Below are positions 1-59,756 of a stretch of 64,000 nt of DNA, one piece after another. The notes beneath the pieces are model-generated. The model was given only the letters and a program-made list of their open reading frames with translations. It had not been told where the DNA came from and searched no databases. The position numbers and the translations under genes were made by a program. The DNA is from a virus: positions 36,023 through 100,022 of IMG/VR virus record IMGVR_UViG_3300033149_004116; one strand, given 5' to 3'. Each line of letters opens with the position of its first letter. Within the stretch, counting starts at the first letter, position 1.

Positions 1-1598
1 TGTCCACATTTTTTACAAATAGAGAAGGAAGTTGCAAAATCATAATATGGAATTTTGGTATATTTTGCTATTCTCTCCGTCAACTTGATTAATCCTTCAG
101 GACTAGGATGGCGTTCGCCCAAGTAAACTCTAAATGCAGTTCCTCCAGTAAAGAGTGGCAATAGATCCTCCTCTATATTAATTCTCTCAAAAAGATCAAT
201 AAATCTATTTGATGGAGTAAGCATCGTTGTATAATAAGGACCATCATTATCTCCCTGTGTAATAATGTCTTTATACATACTTCTATCCACAAAAGCAAGC
301 CGCGTTGCCGACCCCTCGCCAGGAGTCATCTCAACATTCCATAGTTTGCCTGTCTCCATTTGCGCCCTTTTAGACCAATTTCTTATATACATCAGAACCT
401 TTTTAACAAAGAGTTTTCCTTCCTCCTCCCAGATTGGATATCCCATAAAATTTAAAACCATTTCGTGTAGCCCAATAACTCCTATAGTTCTGAAGTATCT
501 ATTAAAATCTATATTGTAATTTTTCGTAACTGGCATATATCCCTCATCCAGCATCTCCTGACACCATACATTTTTTAATAGTAATGATTCTTTAGCCTTT
601 TCTAGAAGATAATTTAGTCGCTCAAAGAAGTCCGCTTCATTTTTTGATAAATATCCCAATTTTGCCATATTCAAAGAAACTACTCCAATGCTTCCAGTTG
701 AACCTTGAAATGCCCATCTTCCACCTGCTGGGGGGAGTTCGGTTAAATCTAATCGAAGGCGGCAGCACATAGCTCTCGTACTATTAGCAGATATACCGCT
801 TCCATCGAAGTTCATAAAATAGTAAGATCCATATTTTTCCATCGTTTTCCCAATTTCATACCATAAATCCGTATCAAATTTTGTAGATTTAATTATATTA
901 ATTGTGGGAATTGGGAAGGCAAAAGGATTCTGCTTCCCGTCGCCTTCGAGGAGGATTTCATTAAAAGCTCTCAATATCATCAAACTTTCATCCTCGAAAT
1001 CTTCATAAGTATTGTTTGTGTCAAACCAAGGTGAAAATTCTTTCAGGTTTTCGGGACATTTTGTATTCAACATGATGTTTGAAAACGGGGTCTCATAGCC
1101 CGATCTTGATGGATAGTTCATATCAAAAACAAATCTCTGTATGCTCTGTTTAACATCATCATAGGAAAGACCATCTTTTGCTATAAAGGGAGCTAGTAAT
1201 GTATTAAAATCCCCCGCCGCCTGCGCGCCCGCCCATTCCTGCTGTTGAGTGCAAAGTCTGTTCACAAGTTGATTTAGAGCGGTATCTAAATGTTTGGCTG
1301 GCTTAGAAATTATCCTATCTGTGATAAGTCCTTTATCTAGAAGTTCCAAGAAGTCGATACCACAACAATATGGGATAATTCCATTTGAGAGATCATGGAG
1401 GTGAAAGTAGCCCTCATTATGTAATCTTTTTATTTCTTTGGGATATTTATTTAAAGTATATTTTTTAATTTCCTCTCCTGCTATAAATCCCTTCATCTGT
1501 GAATAAGATTTATTCTGATTGGCATTTTCTTTTATCAACCAATTCTTCTGCCCAAAATATGTGGGGATATATCCTTCATCGCCTATTTGTTCTGTCAT
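1..1598 (-). CDS. nrdD: Anaerobic (class III) ribonucleoside-triphosphate reductase; 3' end runs off the window
   Basis: Absent from the ORF track; translated by hand from ATG at 1598: MTEQIGDEGYIPTYF..KENANQ..HNEGYFHLHDL..PYCCG..PAKHLDTA..QEWAGAQA..ETPFSN..PFAFPIPT..RAMCCRLRLD..GSIGVVSLN..EMTPGEGSATRLA..FTGGT..SICKKCG. These are NrdD motifs. Confidence 0.95.
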   Translation of the reverse strand, partial: MTEQIGDEGYIPTYFGQKNWLIKENANQNKSYSQMKGFIAGEEIKKYTLNKYPKEIKRLHNEGYFHLHDLSNGIIPYCCGIDFLELLDKGLITDRIISKPAKHLDTALNQLVNRLCTQQQEWAGAQAAGDFNTLLAPFIAKDGLSYDDVKQSIQRFVFDMNYPSRSGYETPFSNIMLNTKCPENLKEFSPWFDTNNTYEDFEDESLMILRAFNEILLEGDGKQNPFAFPIPTINIIKSTKFDTDLWYEIGKTMEKYGSYYFMNFDGSGISANSTRAMCCRLRLDLTELPPAGGRWAFQGSTGSIGVVSLNMAKLGYLSKNEADFFERLNYLLEKAKESLLLKNVWCQEMLDEGYMPVTKNYNIDFNRYFRTIGVIGLHEMVLNFMGYPIWEEEGKLFVKKVLMYIRNWSKRAQMETGKLWNVEMTPGEGSATRLAFVDRSMYKDIITQGDNDGPYYTTMLTPSNRFIDLFERINIEEDLLPLFTGGTAFRVYLGERHPSPEGLIKLTERIAKYTKIPYYDFATSFSICKKCG

Positions 1599-16586: not shown

Positions 16587-16964
16587 CTAATATGATTTGA
16601 CAGTTTTTGCCCTCCAATTTACCGTCTCTCTGATCCATCCATCATCAGGAATCTCGAAGTCCCAAGTTTCTATTGAACACCCACTGAGAACTATTGCATT
16701 AGTTGCCATAGACGCTTGAATATCAAAGGTTGTAAGCTGTGTAGTTCCTAAAGCGGCGGTAGCAAATAAAGTAACATCTATGAAGCCTCTCTCTATTGTT
16801 CCAGTAATTTCCCTTCTTGCCTCCCTTCTCGCCGCCAGATCGTAATTTCCAAGCTCGAAGAAGGTTTGAAGACCTCTATCTATCGTTATGGTTCCATTCG
16901 CGAATCCCACTTCCGTTCCGCCTTTATAGATATGTCCTTCCCAATGTCTTTTTGCAACAGACAT
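16587..16964 (-). CDS. Tail tube protein (paralogue 1)
   Basis: VGFANGT, FFELG, ITGTIERGFID and IVLSGC.I.TWDF, visibly similar to 16146-16574. Confidence 0.7.
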   Translation of the reverse strand: MSVAKRHWEGHIYKGGTEVGFANGTITIDRGLQTFFELGNYDLAARREARREITGTIERGFIDVTLFATAALGTTQLTTFDIQASMATNAIVLSGCSIETWDFEIPDDGWIRETVNWRAKTVKSY

Positions 16965-26542: not shown

Positions 26543-27734
26543 TACGATCCCTCAAATATTCGTCAAATTGTTTAACAATAATGTTTATATCATATACTTC
26601 TCTCGCTCTTTTTACTCCTCTCTCGGACATTGCCTTCTTCTCGTCTGGATTTTCTATCAACCATTTCATTTGTTCATAAGCATGATCAACATCGGCTAAT
26701 GCTCTATCAACTCCCGCGCTTCCAGTTTCAAACGTTTCAACCTTGACGGGGAGTCCACAAGTCCAATTCCCAAGTATTTCTTTCGAAGTTGTATATGTCG
26801 TTGCAACGTTAGCACAGCCACACGAGAGAGATTCGGTTAAAGTTAGCCCCCACCCCTCCCCGCCAGTTAAGTAACAAAATATATCTATACAGTTATAGAC
26901 CTCCGCTAATGTTTCCTCAGAAACTCCATACATAAAATTTGCCATCATATCGGGCGAGGGGAATATAACATCTTTCCCTTCCTGCAAGCCAAATCTCTTG
27001 ACTATAAAAGATAAATCCCATCCCTCCTTGTCAACTTTATCCATCCATAGAAGAAGAACAGTATTTGGATAATCTTTATGAAGTTTGACGAATGATTTGA
27101 TAGTTCTGGGGATTTTCTTTCGAGTTTGGTTTCGATCCACCCGTCCAATTACAATTTTGGATGGGGGTATTCCAAGTTTCTGTCTCATTTCTCCAATAGT
27201 TTGCTCATCCAAAGGTTTAAAGATATTTGTCTTGACTCCATGAGGAATTTGATCGGTTTGTATTCCCTCCGCTTTAATCAAGTCCGCGCCGTATTTTGAA
27301 ATACACACCTTATAATCCACTCTTTTCAATATCTCTTTTATTTGATCTGTTACTGGATATCCATCGATAGGAAACCAATACAACCAAGGGACGGGAATCT
27401 CTGTTTTATATAAATAAGAGATCATCCAGAAATCAGCAAGCGTTATCAGAACATCTGGATTTTCCTTTGGAAGCCAATATTTGATTGCTCTCTCCCCGAA
27501 TCTGTCTCCATAAATATTTGGAAGAATCCTATAACCCAAGACATCCTTATGAAAGGAGGCAACCATTTCCTGACCAAAGGATTGCCATCCTATGTGAGCA
27601 ACATCATGTCCAACTTTATGAAGATATGTATCCAAATTTCTTAATGCAGTTCCAAAGCCAGATATGGTGTGTGATGATTGGTGTCCAAGAAGGGGATTCC
27701 TTACTTAGATATCACCCATCGTTAATATCTTCAT
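26535..27734 (-). CDS. GT4 glycosyltransferase in two exons (27711-27734 and 26535-27677) separated by a 33-nt BHB intron; 388 aa after splicing
   Basis: AAGGTGA SD and ATG at 27734 give MKILTMGD. Removing 27678-27710 joins it in frame to SSHTISGFGTALRNLDTYLHKVGHDV, restoring a typical GT4 N-terminus. RNQTRK and GEGWGL..E motifs downstream. Confidence 0.88.
27678..27710 (-). other. Archaeal bulge-helix-bulge micro-intron in an mRNA
   Basis: Minus strand GATG-GGTG-AT^A-TCTAAG..CTTGGA-CACC-AA^T-CATC: outer helix GATG/CATC, 4-bp central helix GGTG/CACC, 3-nt bulges ATA and AAT, inner helix TCTAAG/CTTGGA. Contains an in-frame TAA. Confidence 0.85.
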
Positions 27735-28791: not shown

Positions 28792-29296
28792 CCAACTCTA
28801 TTTTGCCTAAAAAATTAACAATGGGGATTCCTAAATAAAATTTTTCACCAACAAAATGAGGAGTAAAAATTGCCTCTTCTGGTTGTTTTAAATAAACAAT
28901 CTCTCTATTTTGAGAGTTTCTAGCAGCTATAAAAGTATGTTGTCCCATTTTATGATGAATTACCCATATCCACAAATCGGAGCAGGCATCTATATCTCTC
29001 ACAGAGGGAATGGTTCCATTTGGATGGCTATGAAATTTTCCTTGTTTATATAAACCAATACTGGAAGCATAAAGATTACACCAATATCCGCCCCAAGAAT
29101 GTTCTCTATACGTTCTATATTTTTTATTTCCCTCTTCTACATTTGGAACAGGGAAAATGTCTCTAATAATTGTATCTTCAAGATATTTATATCCTAAAAG
29201 ATATCCTCCCACCTCTTCTGGATGTTTCGCATCACACAAAGTTTCAAGTTTTAGTTTTGCCTTAGAATCTAGTAATATTTTTTCCATAAACATCAT
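28754..29296 (-). CDS. JAB/MPN+ (JAMM) metalloprotease
   Basis: EVGGYLLG..FHSHPNGTIPSVRD is a complete E..HxHx6SxxD motif. Confidence 0.85.
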   Translation of the reverse strand: MMFMEKILLDSKAKLKLETLCDAKHPEEVGGYLLGYKYLEDTIIRDIFPVPNVEEGNKKYRTYREHSWGGYWCNLYASSIGLYKQGKFHSHPNGTIPSVRDIDACSDLWIWVIHHKMGQHTFIAARNSQNREIVYLKQPEEAIFTPHFVGEKFYLGIPIVNFLGKIELDEQSKKNNETKR

Positions 29297-29319: not shown

Positions 29320-29904
29320 TTATGATATGTCTTCAATCGGAGTTTCAATATAAATTTTATAAAAGTTCTTGGGGGGAGCAAAATTGTGTTCTCTCGCCTC
29401 AGTTGCAATATGCCGAGCTATAGCGGGCATAGTTATCCTTTTATCGCTCCAATTTTCTATTCCTACTTGATCTAGAGCGTGTTGTAATGCTCGCATAATT
29501 CGTTCTTTGGGCATAGGAGGATATTGAGGTCTAACCTCCTTTCTAGGAAGTCTGGGAAGTTTTGGAAGATCGATCTTCTCTTTCGCAAATATCTGATGTT
29601 TATAATTTTTTAGAACTACTCCTTCCCTTCGATGGCGACGACACCAAGTTAACGATTTCTGAATTCGTTCATTTAATTCTTCTAATGATGCTGGTATAAA
29701 TCTATCAATAACTCTGACTATAGGTATTTTAAATTGATATGCTCTTTGATATACATACTCGTATGGTAAAAATCTTTCAGCATTTACGTCATATATGTCG
29801 AAAATTATCCAATGAATATTTGAAATTGCTGATTCTATTCTAGTTGGCGATCCGCTTCTTTTTTTAATGTGATAACTTCCACATTTAGGACATTTTATTG
29901 TCAT
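29320..29904 (-). CDS. ATP-dependent RNA ligase, C-terminal half of a split gene
   Basis: IFDIYD (motif IIIa), REGVVLK (IV) and FAKEK (V); begins with CPKC. Confidence 0.75.
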   Translation of the reverse strand: MTIKCPKCGSYHIKKRSGSPTRIESAISNIHWIIFDIYDVNAERFLPYEYVYQRAYQFKIPIVRVIDRFIPASLEELNERIQKSLTWCRRHRREGVVLKNYKHQIFAKEKIDLPKLPRLPRKEVRPQYPPMPKERIMRALQHALDQVGIENWSDKRITMPAIARHIATEAREHNFAPPKNFYKIYIETPIEDIS

Positions 29905-30464
29905 TTTTTCTTAATTCTCCATTTTCATATCTTTTTATCCATTGACAATTCATACATAATACTTGATATCCCTCTGGATAATTATTATCTTGTAACCAGC
30001 GATAAAAATGTCTTCCACCTTTTCTATTTTTTCCAAATAACTCTCTTCTATGATCTCCACCGCCTCCCTTGATATGATCTATTGAAAGAGTTCTTATATC
30101 GCTCATACCACATTGACGACAAACAGGTGTTGAGAGATGGGAATAATGAGATAAAACTTCATATTTTATTTTCTGACTCCATATCTTACTTCTTTCGTTG
30201 CTTGCCTTTATTAGTTTTATTCTGTTTTTCTCATAATACTCCTTTTGTTTTTGTCTTATTTTATCTTTATTCTCTTCTCTATATTTTTTATTATATATCC
30301 TCCTCCTCTCTCTGTTCTTGATATAATATTCATGTTTATATTTTTTTATACATTCTTTACACTCAGTTCGTCTATTCTTTTTTTCCCCTTTCTTTTCTTT
30401 CATAAAAATCTGAAACGGGTTTAATTTGATGACATATTCGACATTCGCGGAGTTCCATAATCAT
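29885..30464 (-). mobile_element. HNH homing endonuclease inserted in the RNA ligase gene; frameshift at a G4A7 run near 30378-30388
   Basis: N-part MIMELRECRICHQIKPVSDFY (from 30464) continues in the +1 frame as RTECKEC..CRQCG..LSIDHI..YQVLCMNCQ; own TATA box near 30485. Confidence 0.8.
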
Positions 30465-30502
30465 TATAGGTTCACTTCTAAAATATAAAGGTTTTGTTCA
30501 AC

Positions 30503-30838
30503 TCACCATTTATATCTACAATCTTTACATATGAAACGACCTTTCTTAAGCAACTCGCCATATAAAATGAATTTATTATCATAATTTAATTCATTCTTTA
30601 ATAATTCAATTGCTCTGGAATATTCTGGGGTTGATCTCAATCGAGCCCGAATGCTCTTATCAGCTTCTTTCATTCTCCTACTAGAGATTTGGGGGATTTC
30701 GTCCTCATCAAACCAAATTGATGTATTTTCTCCGTCGCGCTTAACAGTAAAAAGAACAACCTTTCCTAATAATTCTCTCCCCTCATTTCTCAATCTTTTA
30801 ACTGGTTCTAAATCGGGATATTTTTTCCAAATAGACAT
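30503..30838 (-). CDS. ATP-dependent RNA ligase, N-terminal half of a split gene
   Basis: KYP, TVKRDGEN (motif I KxDG), SSRR (Ia) and ILYGEL (III); ends with FICKDCRYKW. Confidence 0.78.
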   Translation of the reverse strand: MSIWKKYPDLEPVKRLRNEGRELLGKVVLFTVKRDGENTSIWFDEDEIPQISSRRMKEADKSIRARLRSTPEYSRAIELLKNELNYDNKFILYGELLKKGRFICKDCRYKW

Positions 30839-48798: not shown

Positions 48799-48870
48799 TC
48801 AATTTCCTCCAAAAAGGGATTGCCTTGGAGACGCCCTTCTCCTCAGCCCGCGACTTTAAAGTTTTCACCC

Positions 48871-49095
48871 TCATTCTCCGCTTTTTATTTGAATATTTAA
48901 AAATTTTATTAACGCTGCTAATATTAAATCGTTTTTAAAAATATTGTATCTAATTTTAATGTTTTCAGAAATATCCGTGCCTCTCTCGACCTCTCCCTCG
49001 TCCATAAGTTTGCCATACTTTTTTAGTAAAGATTCGTGCAATTTCTTCCAATTGTCATAAATTTCCTGTGGTGACTTCTCCCAAGATTCCATCAT
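48871..49095 (-). CDS. Hypothetical protein
   Basis: Small ORF with an upstream TATA-like box. Confidence 0.45.
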   Translation of the reverse strand: MMESWEKSPQEIYDNWKKLHESLLKKYGKLMDEGEVERGTDISENIKIRYNIFKNDLILAALIKFLNIQIKSGE

Positions 49096-49153
49096 ATTAT
49101 TCGTCCCGTCCTAAACTTATAAAAAGCAATCTTATATTTAAGGATTGTGGTTG

Positions 49154-49287
49154 AACCACAAATGTCGCGTGGGCGAACCAAGAGGGGGTATCAGGAGAAT
49201 GCTCCTCTGGCGACAAACCCCTATCACGCAAGACGATAACCCCACACCGTCTCCGCTTGGCTATTGTCCCATTTCGCGTTTGTGGTT
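49154..49287 (-). ncRNA. BHB-flanked structured RNA precursor; predicted excised product 49164-49272 (109 nt)
   Basis: Minus strand AACCACAAA-CGCG-AA^A-TGGG...CCCA-CGCG-AC^A-TTTGTGGTT is a canonical BHB. GC-rich and intergenic, with a TATA box near 49311-49320. Confidence 0.75.
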
Positions 49288-49353
49288 ATCAATTCTAATT
49301 GAAGAAATTCTTATATAAAAACTTTTTCCTTTCAATTTTTTATGATACATAAA

Positions 49354-49701
49354 CTATTTATCAAGAAGATAGGAGAAGTATTTTCTAAATCTTGGCGGGA
49401 TGTCTGGAGCATCGTCAATAACCCATCCATAGCCTATCCAGTAGGGGGCAATCTGCAACCTTCCTATAATGATTATTTCCGAACTTCCATACATAATCAT
49501 AATCAACAATCCAAGCCAAAGATGATGGGTGAAATCAAGTAAGCGTTTAATGAAATTTTTCTTCCACTCTTCGTTGAGATTATTAAACCACGATGAATTC
49601 TGTATATCTTGATCTAATTGCTTGCCAAAAGCGCGCGCGAAGAAGAATCCAATTAAAGCCCACACGATCTGAACAAATGTAGTTGGAGCAGGAATATTCA
49701 T
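49354..49701 (-). CDS. Membrane protein
   Basis: Hydrophobic helices with HH and DD motifs; likely start MNIPAP. Confidence 0.6.
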   Translation of the reverse strand: MNIPAPTTFVQIVWALIGFFFARAFGKQLDQDIQNSSWFNNLNEEWKKNFIKRLLDFTHHLWLGLLIMIMYGSSEIIIIGRLQIAPYWIGYGWVIDDAPDIPPRFRKYFSYLLDK

Positions 49702-49718
49702 TCTAATCGTCCTTAAAA

Positions 49719-49841
49719 TTATTTGCGATTTCTGCCTTTCCCTTTCGATTTGGTCTTGGAACATCCTCCGCGACCTTTATTTGCTCTGCGACCCTTCCCA
49801 GAACCGTCCCGTTTTGGACTGCCCTTTCGTGCTTTTTTCAT
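49719..49841 (-). CDS. 40-aa very basic Gly/Lys/Arg-rich peptide
   Basis: Hand translation MKKARKGSPKRDGSGKGRRANKGRGGCSKTKSKGKGRNRK; TATA-like box upstream. Confidence 0.6.
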   Translation of the reverse strand: MKKARKGSPKRDGSGKGRRANKGRGGCSKTKSKGKGRNRK

Positions 49842-58499: not shown

Positions 58500-59756
58500 T
58501 TATTTGCCTGTTTTAGAAAAAAATGATAGATTATAGCTACCGAGAGCCGTAAGCGCGTATTTATTCCCCTCGCCATTATATTTTTTCTCTATCAATCCGA
58601 GTTCCTTCCCCTCCTTAATTCCCCTCGAAACGGTTTTCGTGGACATCCCTGTTTGGTTTGTTAGATCGGTAAAGGATAATGTTTGAGTTTTTAAGGCGTT
58701 TAGAGTATTAGAACCTCTCTTTGATGTAATGTAGTCGATAACAGGTTCTGACCATGAATATGTATATTGTAAAGGAACATATTTTGGCGGAGCAATAGGA
58801 ATATATTGCCAATTTCTTTCTCGCTCTTCGTGTCTTTTATATTTATTTTTCTCTTTCTCAGTTCTAGTGACTAATATATGAATACATTCCTCGTCTAATG
58901 TAGTAAATTCCCCGACCATTTTCCCATCATCAAATATATATGTTTCAGTATTCTTTCCCTCAAACACCAAAGTTCCATTCATATTTGTCAATTTTCTTAG
59001 GAAGTCAAACACGCGTGCTTTTACTACATCCATTTTTATTTCATACATTTCTGGAAGTTCCTTTTTAAGAATATCAGAGTAGTTTTTTATTACTGTTTTT
59101 GAAAGAGCCATCCAAGATTCTGGACTATCAAACATCTCTAGCCCTACAACTCCGCCCAAATCGAGAATCACAAGCCCCACTTGCATTAAGTGATCTGCTG
59201 GAATATTCTTTAGATACTCCTCTATATCATCTTTAAATTTGTTTATCTCCTCCATCGTTCCCGCCAAATCGTCCCATCTTTGAATTGAAATATTATAATT
59301 GTTTTTCACAGTAGTTGAAAATGTGGATATGGAATTCCACACGTAACCTTGATCATAGTTTAAGGTAGATTCTATCTGTCGAGGAACATATCCAGTATGG
59401 GACAGAGCAACTCCACCAGTAATTCCCTTGGAAGCGAATATGCATCTAACTTCTGGTTGAGATACTGTATTTGGAGCTACCACGACACTCGCAGAAAATG
59501 CTCGACTCTGTGTTTTCCCCTTTAACATAGTTCCCCGTCGAAGGAAAACGTTTTTGTCAGATTTATTATCAACCTTAACTTTGGATATACTGCCACTATC
59601 CAAAATTCTTACCTGATCGGGAACCTCTTCGAGGAGGACGTAATCTCTCCCCTCTTTTATATGTTTTCGGAGAATTGGAACGGCAACCCCCATTGCCCTA
59701 TTGTGCAATCTCCAAGGTTCGCCCAACTCTACTTCAAACAGTTCTGGTATTTTCAT
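58500..59756 (-). CDS. ARPP-1/DUF6569-like protein with C-terminal wHTH
   Basis: DSGSISKV.V.N....VFL..G..L.G.TQSR, V.C, QG.VW, QVG and GLEMFDSP. Confidence 0.65.
   Translation of the reverse strand: MKIPELFEVELGEPWRLHNRAMGVAVPILRKHIKEGRDYVLLEEVPDQVRILDSGSISKVKVDNKSDKNVFLRRGTMLKGKTQSRAFSASVVVAPNTVSQPEVRCIFASKGITGGVALSHTGYVPRQIESTLNYDQGYVWNSISTFSTTVKNNYNISIQRWDDLAGTMEEINKFKDDIEEYLKNIPADHLMQVGLVILDLGGVVGLEMFDSPESWMALSKTVIKNYSDILKKELPEMYEIKMDVVKARVFDFLRKLTNMNGTLVFEGKNTETYIFDDGKMVGEFTTLDEECIHILVTRTEKEKNKYKRHEERERNWQYIPIAPPKYVPLQYTYSWSEPVIDYITSKRGSNTLNALKTQTLSFTDLTNQTGMSTKTVSRGIKEGKELGLIEKKYNGEGNKYALTALGSYNLSFFSKTGK

Follow-up and report, generated by a model that had tools for sequence, protein, structure and literature searches.

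The RNA element described here lies on the minus strand of a virus, between two minus-strand ORFs at positions 49354-49764 and 48871-49095. Positions refer to the window, the whole stretch of 64,000 nucleotides that was analysed, which corresponds to bases 36023-100022 of the 100,022-bp IMG/VR record IMGVR_UViG_3300033149_004116; where a genome coordinate is given, it equals the window position plus 36022. The upstream ORF (49354-49764), 115 residues long from its likely start, encodes a membrane-type protein belonging to an uncharacterised conserved family, with relatives at approximately 50% identity and the shared motifs FGKQLDQDIQ, LDFTHHWW and DDxPDxPxR. Some 50 metagenomic or viral contigs and one Bathyarchaeia MAG carry members of this family. 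The downstream ORF (48871-49095, 74 residues) is on the same strand as the element, which ends 58 nt upstream of it, and is the candidate "host gene" should the element prove to be an intron; a Pfam search of its product gave no match and PHROG matches were faint. Between the two ORFs the GC content rises to a peak of 59%, against 35% for the genome, in an island (49139-49290) whose edges coincide with the ends of the helix described below. A TATA box, TTTATATA, is found at 49312-49319 on the minus strand, with a purine-rich GAAAAAG before it, which confirms the GC-rich intergenic island with its own TATA box that had been noted in an initial sequence-only reading of this DNA.

The virus record has an estimated completeness of 79% and carries a T4-type large terminase, a family B DNA polymerase and many orphan ORFs. 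The nearest relatives of the polymerase among sequenced viruses are those of haloarchaeal tailed viruses, at approximately 22% identity, and by these terminase and polymerase relationships the virus is classed as a tailed archaeal virus without close sequenced kin. Genes for EndA and RtcB were sought in the virus genome and neither was found, so that any processing of the kind considered here would rely on the host. Two minus-strand genes of the RNA-ligase family PF09414 are present, at genome 12608-13120 and at window 29320-30838, the match in the latter being interrupted by stop codons; these might relate to RNA repair or to RNA circularisation.

Positions 49154-49287 form, on the minus strand, a perfect hBHBh' motif, which was read directly and was also found independently by script. 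In minus-strand order the parts are AACCACAAA-CGCG-AAA-UGGG ... CCCA-CGCG-ACA-UUUGUGGUU. The outer 9-bp helix pairs AACCACAAA (49279-49287, part of the 5' "exon") with UUUGUGGUU (49154-49162, part of the 3' "exon"), the central 4-bp helix pairs CGCG (49275-49278) with a second CGCG (49166-49169) that lies within the RNA predicted to be excised, and the inner 4-bp helix pairs UGGG (49271-49268) with CCCA (49173-49170). The two bulges, AAA at 49272-49274 on the 5' side and ACA at 49163-49165 on the 3' side, are on opposite strands and 4 bp apart, and all 17 base pairs are Watson-Crick. As in sites of the splicing endonuclease, the central helix is exactly 4 bp long and each 3-nt bulge is positioned 3' of its own central-helix strand; the flanking helices, for which at least 2-3 bp are expected, comprise 9 bp on the outer and 4 bp on the inner side with zero mismatches. 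Only in the minus-strand RNA is this order of helix and bulge correct on both strands; the plus-strand RNA has the mirror image.

The MFE fold includes the motif. For the three helices, pair probabilities lie between 0.9 and 1.0 at 37°C and between 0.8 and 0.99 at 60°C, within a 331-nt precursor as well; the central CGCG/CGCG helix has pair probabilities of 0.98-0.99, and the terminal pair of the outer helix is an exception at 0.28-0.59. The three helices and two bulges named in the sequence-only reading were thus recovered by direct reading, by script and in the MFE fold, and its statement that the bulge geometry is right only on the strand the promoter would transcribe is borne out by the helix-bulge order. 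Together these data support, in silico, a canonical and strand-specific EndA-type motif.

The whole 100-kb genome was scanned on both strands for strict hBHBh' motifs, allowing Watson-Crick pairs only and spans of 12-300 nt. The element ranks top genome-wide, with a score of 44 against 36 for the next, and none of 20 dinucleotide-preserving shuffles reached this score (maxima of 31-39). An analytic estimate gives approximately 0.02-0.1 strict 17-bp BHBs per 100 kb by chance. For this genome the motif is therefore significant by itself, but it is less than overwhelming once very many windows are scanned, among which some chance cases are expected; the added weight comes from three independent features, namely the edges of the GC island, the promoter spacing and a second BHB element in the virus.

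This second element is a mini-intron in a glycosyltransferase (GT) gene, at 27673-27720 on the minus strand. The gene, at approximately 27733, meets a TAA stop after nine codons, and the surrounding sequence has the form GAUG-GGUG-AUA-UCUAAG...CUUGGA-CACC-AAU-CAUC. An intron of this type is akin to that of crenarchaeal cbf5 mRNA. The cut rule applied to both elements states that the central-helix strand precedes the bulge in the 5' to 3' direction and that cutting occurs after the second base of the bulge; it was worked out from the tRNA 37/38 intron (PMC4090602). Applied to the GT gene it removes 33 nt (27710-27678), deleting the in-frame TAA and restoring a typical GT4 N-terminus, so that the mini-intron serves as an internal positive control for the rule. 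Because the frame is restored in this way, it is very probable that viral transcripts are already dependent on BHB splicing by the host. The second-best strict BHB-like site of the scan (59324-59394, minus strand) has an 8-bp outer helix, a TTCC/GGAA central helix, a 3-bp inner helix and a 48-nt in-frame insert. It has an AT-rich interior, lies inside an intact ARPP-1 ORF and is outside the local MFE structure, and was rejected as probably a chance occurrence. The proposal that the virus makes systematic use of BHB processing is based on two elements only, the RNA element and the GT intron.

For the RNA element, the same rule places the cuts at 49273/49272 in the 5' bulge and at 49164/49163 in the 3' bulge and excises 49272 to 49164, a segment of 109 nt with 58% GC that is expected to be circular. 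Position 49164 joined to 49272 would give the circle junction ..CACGCGAC|AUGGGAC.. and 49273 joined to 49163 the ligated-flank junction ..ACGCGAA|AUUUGUGG.. In silico, both the length of the excised RNA and its junction reproduce those originally proposed.

The promoter of the element has a counterpart elsewhere in the genome. From the first T of the TTTATATA box to the predicted transcript start at approximately 49289 is 30 nt (the start lies 22 nt after the box), and this start is two bases before the outer helix. The tRNA-His gene has the same 30-nt spacing, with a TTTAAATA box at genome 29168 and the tRNA 5' end at 29138. Four further GC-rich small-RNA candidates share this box-to-start spacing, all of them on the minus strand and starting 22 nt after a TTTAAATA or TTTATATA box; they lie at genome 8635, 9053 and 35365 and at window 62658. 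These four have no sequence in common, either among themselves or with the BHB element, and none has a BHB frame; some of them end in TTTTTA. A fifth box with the same spacing, at genome 883, is followed by AT-rich sequence. On the opposite strand of the element, a plus-strand box would put the start of transcription inside the outer helix. A promoter belonging to the element itself, at the spacing used for tRNA-His and for other small RNAs, is supported in silico by these patterns.

Downstream of the helix, two further signals precede the 74-aa ORF. A second promoter-like box, CTTAAATA, which is one mismatch from TTTAAATA, is found at 49135-49142 and would start an mRNA for this ORF at approximately 49112. 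A T5 run at 49121-49125, the likely archaeal terminator of a small-RNA transcript, begins 29 nt past the helix. As the run is this far beyond the helix, with the promoter-like box between them, read-through into the 74-aa ORF is possible. The 3' strand of the outer helix also forms, with a second copy of AACCACAA, a perfect 17-bp DNA palindrome, TTGTGGTT-C-AACCACAA (49145-49161), which occurs nowhere else in the genome and immediately precedes the CTTAAATA box. The 8-mer AACCACAA itself occurs seven times in the genome against approximately four expected, with three of the copies at the element. The palindrome may be a binding site for a regulator or other protein. A separate TTTAAATA box is located within the 3'-terminal part of the 74-aa ORF (48800-48901, minus strand) and is followed by a GC-rich leader of approximately 70 nt and a GGAGG Shine-Dalgarno sequence before a 200-aa ORF; this region may be a structured 5' UTR.

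Four internal stems had been proposed for the 109-nt interior. All of the pairs exist, but only CCAAG (49260-49256) with CUUGG (49182-49178) is present in the MFE structure (-52.5 kcal/mol), the hairpins AGACG/CGUCU, GGGGU/ACCCC and AGGAG/CUCCU belonging instead to a near-optimal alternative (-50.7 kcal/mol). The predicted fold of the interior is no more stable than those of composition-matched shuffles (z = -0.4), and this score, together with the ambiguity of the fold, makes the modelling weak evidence for a dedicated structured RNA. Two further pairings had been suggested for the RNA. The complementarity of internal UGUCGC to GCGACA across the junction is real, but forcing this pairing costs approximately 7 kcal/mol; the second copy of AACCACAA is indeed present at 49152-49145, but the hairpin in which it would compete for the outer helix has a probability of approximately zero. 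Neither is energetically favoured, and both were rejected as structural switches.

The RNA was compared with known classes of non-coding RNA. Rfam searches, at the gathering threshold over the whole window and at E values up to 10 at the locus, gave no relevant family and no tRNA, and ARAGORN, applied to the window, to the doubled circle and, with the intron option, to the genome, returned only the tRNA-His elsewhere. With no tRNA body in either the linear RNA or the doubled circle, a tRNA intron and a permuted or split tRNA were rejected. A permuted form of a known RNA, of the SRP RNA type, was likewise rejected as no partial Rfam match was seen at E values up to 10, although a search in the unpermuted order is a weaker test. 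A box C/D sRNA is expected to have C (RUGAUGA) and D (CUGA) boxes close to its ends that form a k-turn, together with C'/D' boxes and guides of 10-12 nt. Inspection by eye identified one GUGAUAG and one CUGA, both internal and 26 nt apart; a second box pair is absent and the tandem G-A pairing is misaligned, and a box C/D sRNA was rejected. H/ACA and k-turn readings of the interior were also rejected by eye. The element interrupts no tRNA, rRNA or ORF. For a plus-strand ORF of 57 residues neither a homologue nor a family was identified, and gene calling placed no gene there. Within the virus there is no second copy of the element and no long antisense target, the best matches being 10-13 nt.

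Homologues of the element were sought widely. A blastn search of a phage collection found none, and when the flanking small ORFs, the phosphodiesterase and TerL were each used as single-protein queries against IMG/VR, no close relatives were returned. Alignment of the 115-aa protein retrieved 52 loci (48 metagenomic and 4 viral) together with one Bathyarchaeia MAG contig, and in all 456 kb of viral and metagenomic loci were searched as related sequence. No blastn or nhmmer match to the element was found in the 52 loci, the MAG contig or three whole related virus records; in these loci there is no convincing BHB downstream of the 115-aa gene, and its neighbours are not conserved. A covariance model of the element, a check proposed together with the sequence-only reading, gave no match in the same loci or in the three virus records. 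Among Bathyarchaeia (401 genomes by BLAST, 151 by the covariance model) and Thermoproteota (401 genomes by BLAST) the only matches were short and at chance level. Pattern scans of IMG/VR with the BHB frame and with one interior 18-mer gave no match, and a scan with an interior 17-mer gave two chance matches in high-GC phage coding regions. Since no homologue was found, there is no covariation.

Two other GC-rich regions were observed in the course of these searches. In a distant relative with 44% GC, IMGVR_UViG_3300006409_000018, approximately 270 nt at 16600-16870 (minus strand) have approximately 70% GC and a two-domain fold, with a weak BHB-like closure, AUG-GGGG-AGA-CGGGU...ACCCG-CCCC-ACA-CAU, around a 115-nt interior; this closure is not in the MFE register, and the region has no Rfam match. 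In contig SDBV01119017.1 (43% GC) an island of 69% GC at 690-860 (plus strand) lies behind a TATA-like box, approximately 200 nt downstream of a homologue of the 115-aa gene. It is an unclassified structured-RNA candidate unlike the BHB element.

The Bathyarchaeia MAG is the sole cellular genome found with a relative of the 115-aa gene, and is the sole clue to the host. It contains RtcB as well as two genes with EndA domains. A single gene with 41% identity weakly suggests Bathyarchaeia as the host lineage.

The explanation that best accommodates these observations is a separately transcribed viral small-RNA gene whose product would be cut by host EndA and circularised by host RtcB, an account for and against which we consider the balance to be about even. 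Transcription would start at approximately 49289, 22 nt past the TATA box, and would probably end at the T5 run at 49125-49121, giving a precursor of approximately 165 nt. By sequence and by predicted folding, the ends of this precursor would pair into the canonical hBHBh'. From the known pathway, host EndA would then cut after the second base of each 3-nt bulge and host RtcB would join the 2',3'-cyclic phosphate and 5'-OH ends, so that the virus would provide the substrate and the host the enzymes. The predicted products are the 109-nt GC-rich circle and a hairpin of the ligated flanks, with a 9-bp stem and a 7-nt loop, CGCGAAA. The circle would likely be the functional product, a structured RNA made in the course of infection and resistant to nucleases. 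The description of the element as free-standing is supported in that it has no tRNA, rRNA or ORF as host, but is not secure given the same-strand 74-aa ORF that follows.

That ORF provides the main rival explanation, in which the element would be an intron in the 5' UTR of the 74-aa gene. A read-through transcript from the promoter at 49319-49312 would have 109 nt spliced from its leader, leaving a spliced leader of 85 nt with a 5' hairpin; expression of the ORF would need host splicing, and the circle would be a by-product. The common strand and the short distance favour this, as does the BHB intron that the virus already has in the GT mRNA, and archaeal T5 terminators are often leaky. There is also an experimentally shown archaeal precedent in HVO_1309 (PMC7714728). 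Against it, the CTTAAATA box (49142-49135) and the T5 run (49125-49121), both located before the ORF, suggest two transcription units, the insert is long and has 58% GC like the other small RNAs of the virus, whereas the GT mini-intron has approximately 42%, and the surroundings of the start codon would be unaltered by splicing. We consider this explanation unlikely on balance. An ordinary linear structured small RNA, with accidental BHB-like bulges in its closing stem and no EndA cut in vivo, would fit with the presence of at least four other GC-rich candidates that share the promoter spacing and have no BHB. However, the exact 3-4-3 geometry, the correct handedness and the all-Watson-Crick flanks are very unlikely to arise by accident, and archaeal EndA recognises structure, not the surrounding gene (PMC4090602; PMC7714728), so that cutting would be expected wherever an expressed RNA carries a perfect motif. 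We judge a linear RNA to be quite unlikely.

The two remaining explanations are less probable again. The three copies of AACCACAA, including those in the palindrome, could be regulator sites or part of a terminator, with the RNA motif incidental. The uniqueness of the palindrome (49145-49161), its position directly upstream of CTTAAATA and the clustering here of three of the seven 8-mer copies are consistent with such a DNA-level role, but it leaves the 109-nt GC-rich interior, the CGCG and UGGG/CCCA helices and the exact bulges unexplained, and the 8-mer is not enriched elsewhere (seven copies against approximately four expected). As a complete explanation it is improbable, and it is compatible with an RNA-level function rather than exclusive of one. 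The element might instead be a functionless relic of a captured or mobile BHB element, derived from a host tRNA or rRNA processing stem or from an intron in which a homing endonuclease gene was formerly present. Selfish insertions are abundant in the virus, and stops are found within one of its RNA-ligase matches; yet the element has no similarity to Rfam families or to the 401 Bathyarchaeia and 401 Thermoproteota genomes, tRNA-like parts are absent, and there is no endonuclease ORF or remnant nearby. A flawless motif in a precise position behind a promoter is also unlike decay, and a relic seems very improbable indeed.

If a separately transcribed, circularised RNA is confirmed, viruses can borrow host tRNA splicing to make stable circular RNAs, beyond splicing a gene. 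The element would then be a compact natural cassette, consisting of a promoter, a 9-bp clamp, the BHB and a 109-nt cargo, a design that is shared by engineered BHB circRNA expression systems. A bolder form of this proposal, which we advance tentatively and think somewhat short of evenly balanced, is that this promoter-driven, gene-less cassette would yield the first virus-encoded RNA circularised by the host tRNA-splicing machinery. During infection the nuclease-resistant 109-nt circle would act as an effector, for instance as a decoy or sponge for some host factor that binds or processes RNA. On this view the circle, the GT intron and the two RNA-ligase genes together would indicate that the virus deliberately exploits the host pathway for cutting and joining RNA.

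In cells, EndA and RtcB are known to process BHB motifs in tRNAs, rRNAs, one SRP RNA and two mRNAs. Stand-alone circular RNAs processed in this way are already known there, and a virus-encoded case appears to be unreported; the literature searched contained no report of an archaeal virus encoding a BHB-flanked RNA or a circular RNA. Within the virus itself, the element shares its strand, motif geometry and cut rule with the GT mini-intron, but that intron is only 33 nt long, interrupts a coding frame and is not GC-rich, whereas the BHB RNA element interrupts no gene. Archaeal pre-tRNA introns have identical hBHBh' geometry and cut positions, and they can be functional RNAs and are circularised, the archaeal tRNA-Trp intron carrying a box C/D sRNA (reviewed in PMC4090602). 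In contrast to these introns, the viral element has no tRNA, its "exons" amount to a 9-bp hairpin only, and it has no box C/D architecture.

Two experimentally characterised systems are more directly comparable. In Haloferax volcanii, the 5'-UTR BHB intron of HVO_1309 is 46 nt long and lies in a UTR that was mapped at 192 nt (Schwarz et al. 2020, PMC7714728); recombinant endonuclease was shown to cleave at the BHB, and the excised segment was recovered as a circle, this 5'-UTR intron being one of the excised BHB segments so recovered in Haloferax (PMC7714728). In both cases the BHB is in non-coding sequence upstream of a protein gene, but the viral insert, at 109 nt, is longer as well as GC-rich, and before the ORF is reached it is followed by a promoter-like box and a T5 run. 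In Thermoproteus tenax, the ends of the SRP RNA transcript form a BHB, and cutting by the tRNA-splicing endonuclease followed by ligation produces a stable, functional circle (Plagens et al. 2015, PMC4731332). The SRP RNA is a cellular, permuted member of a known family, whereas the viral 109-nt RNA is a prediction and belongs to no known family; the SRP RNA gene is, and the viral gene would be, a stand-alone gene, neither tRNA nor rRNA, with transcript ends that form, or in the virus are predicted to form, a BHB.
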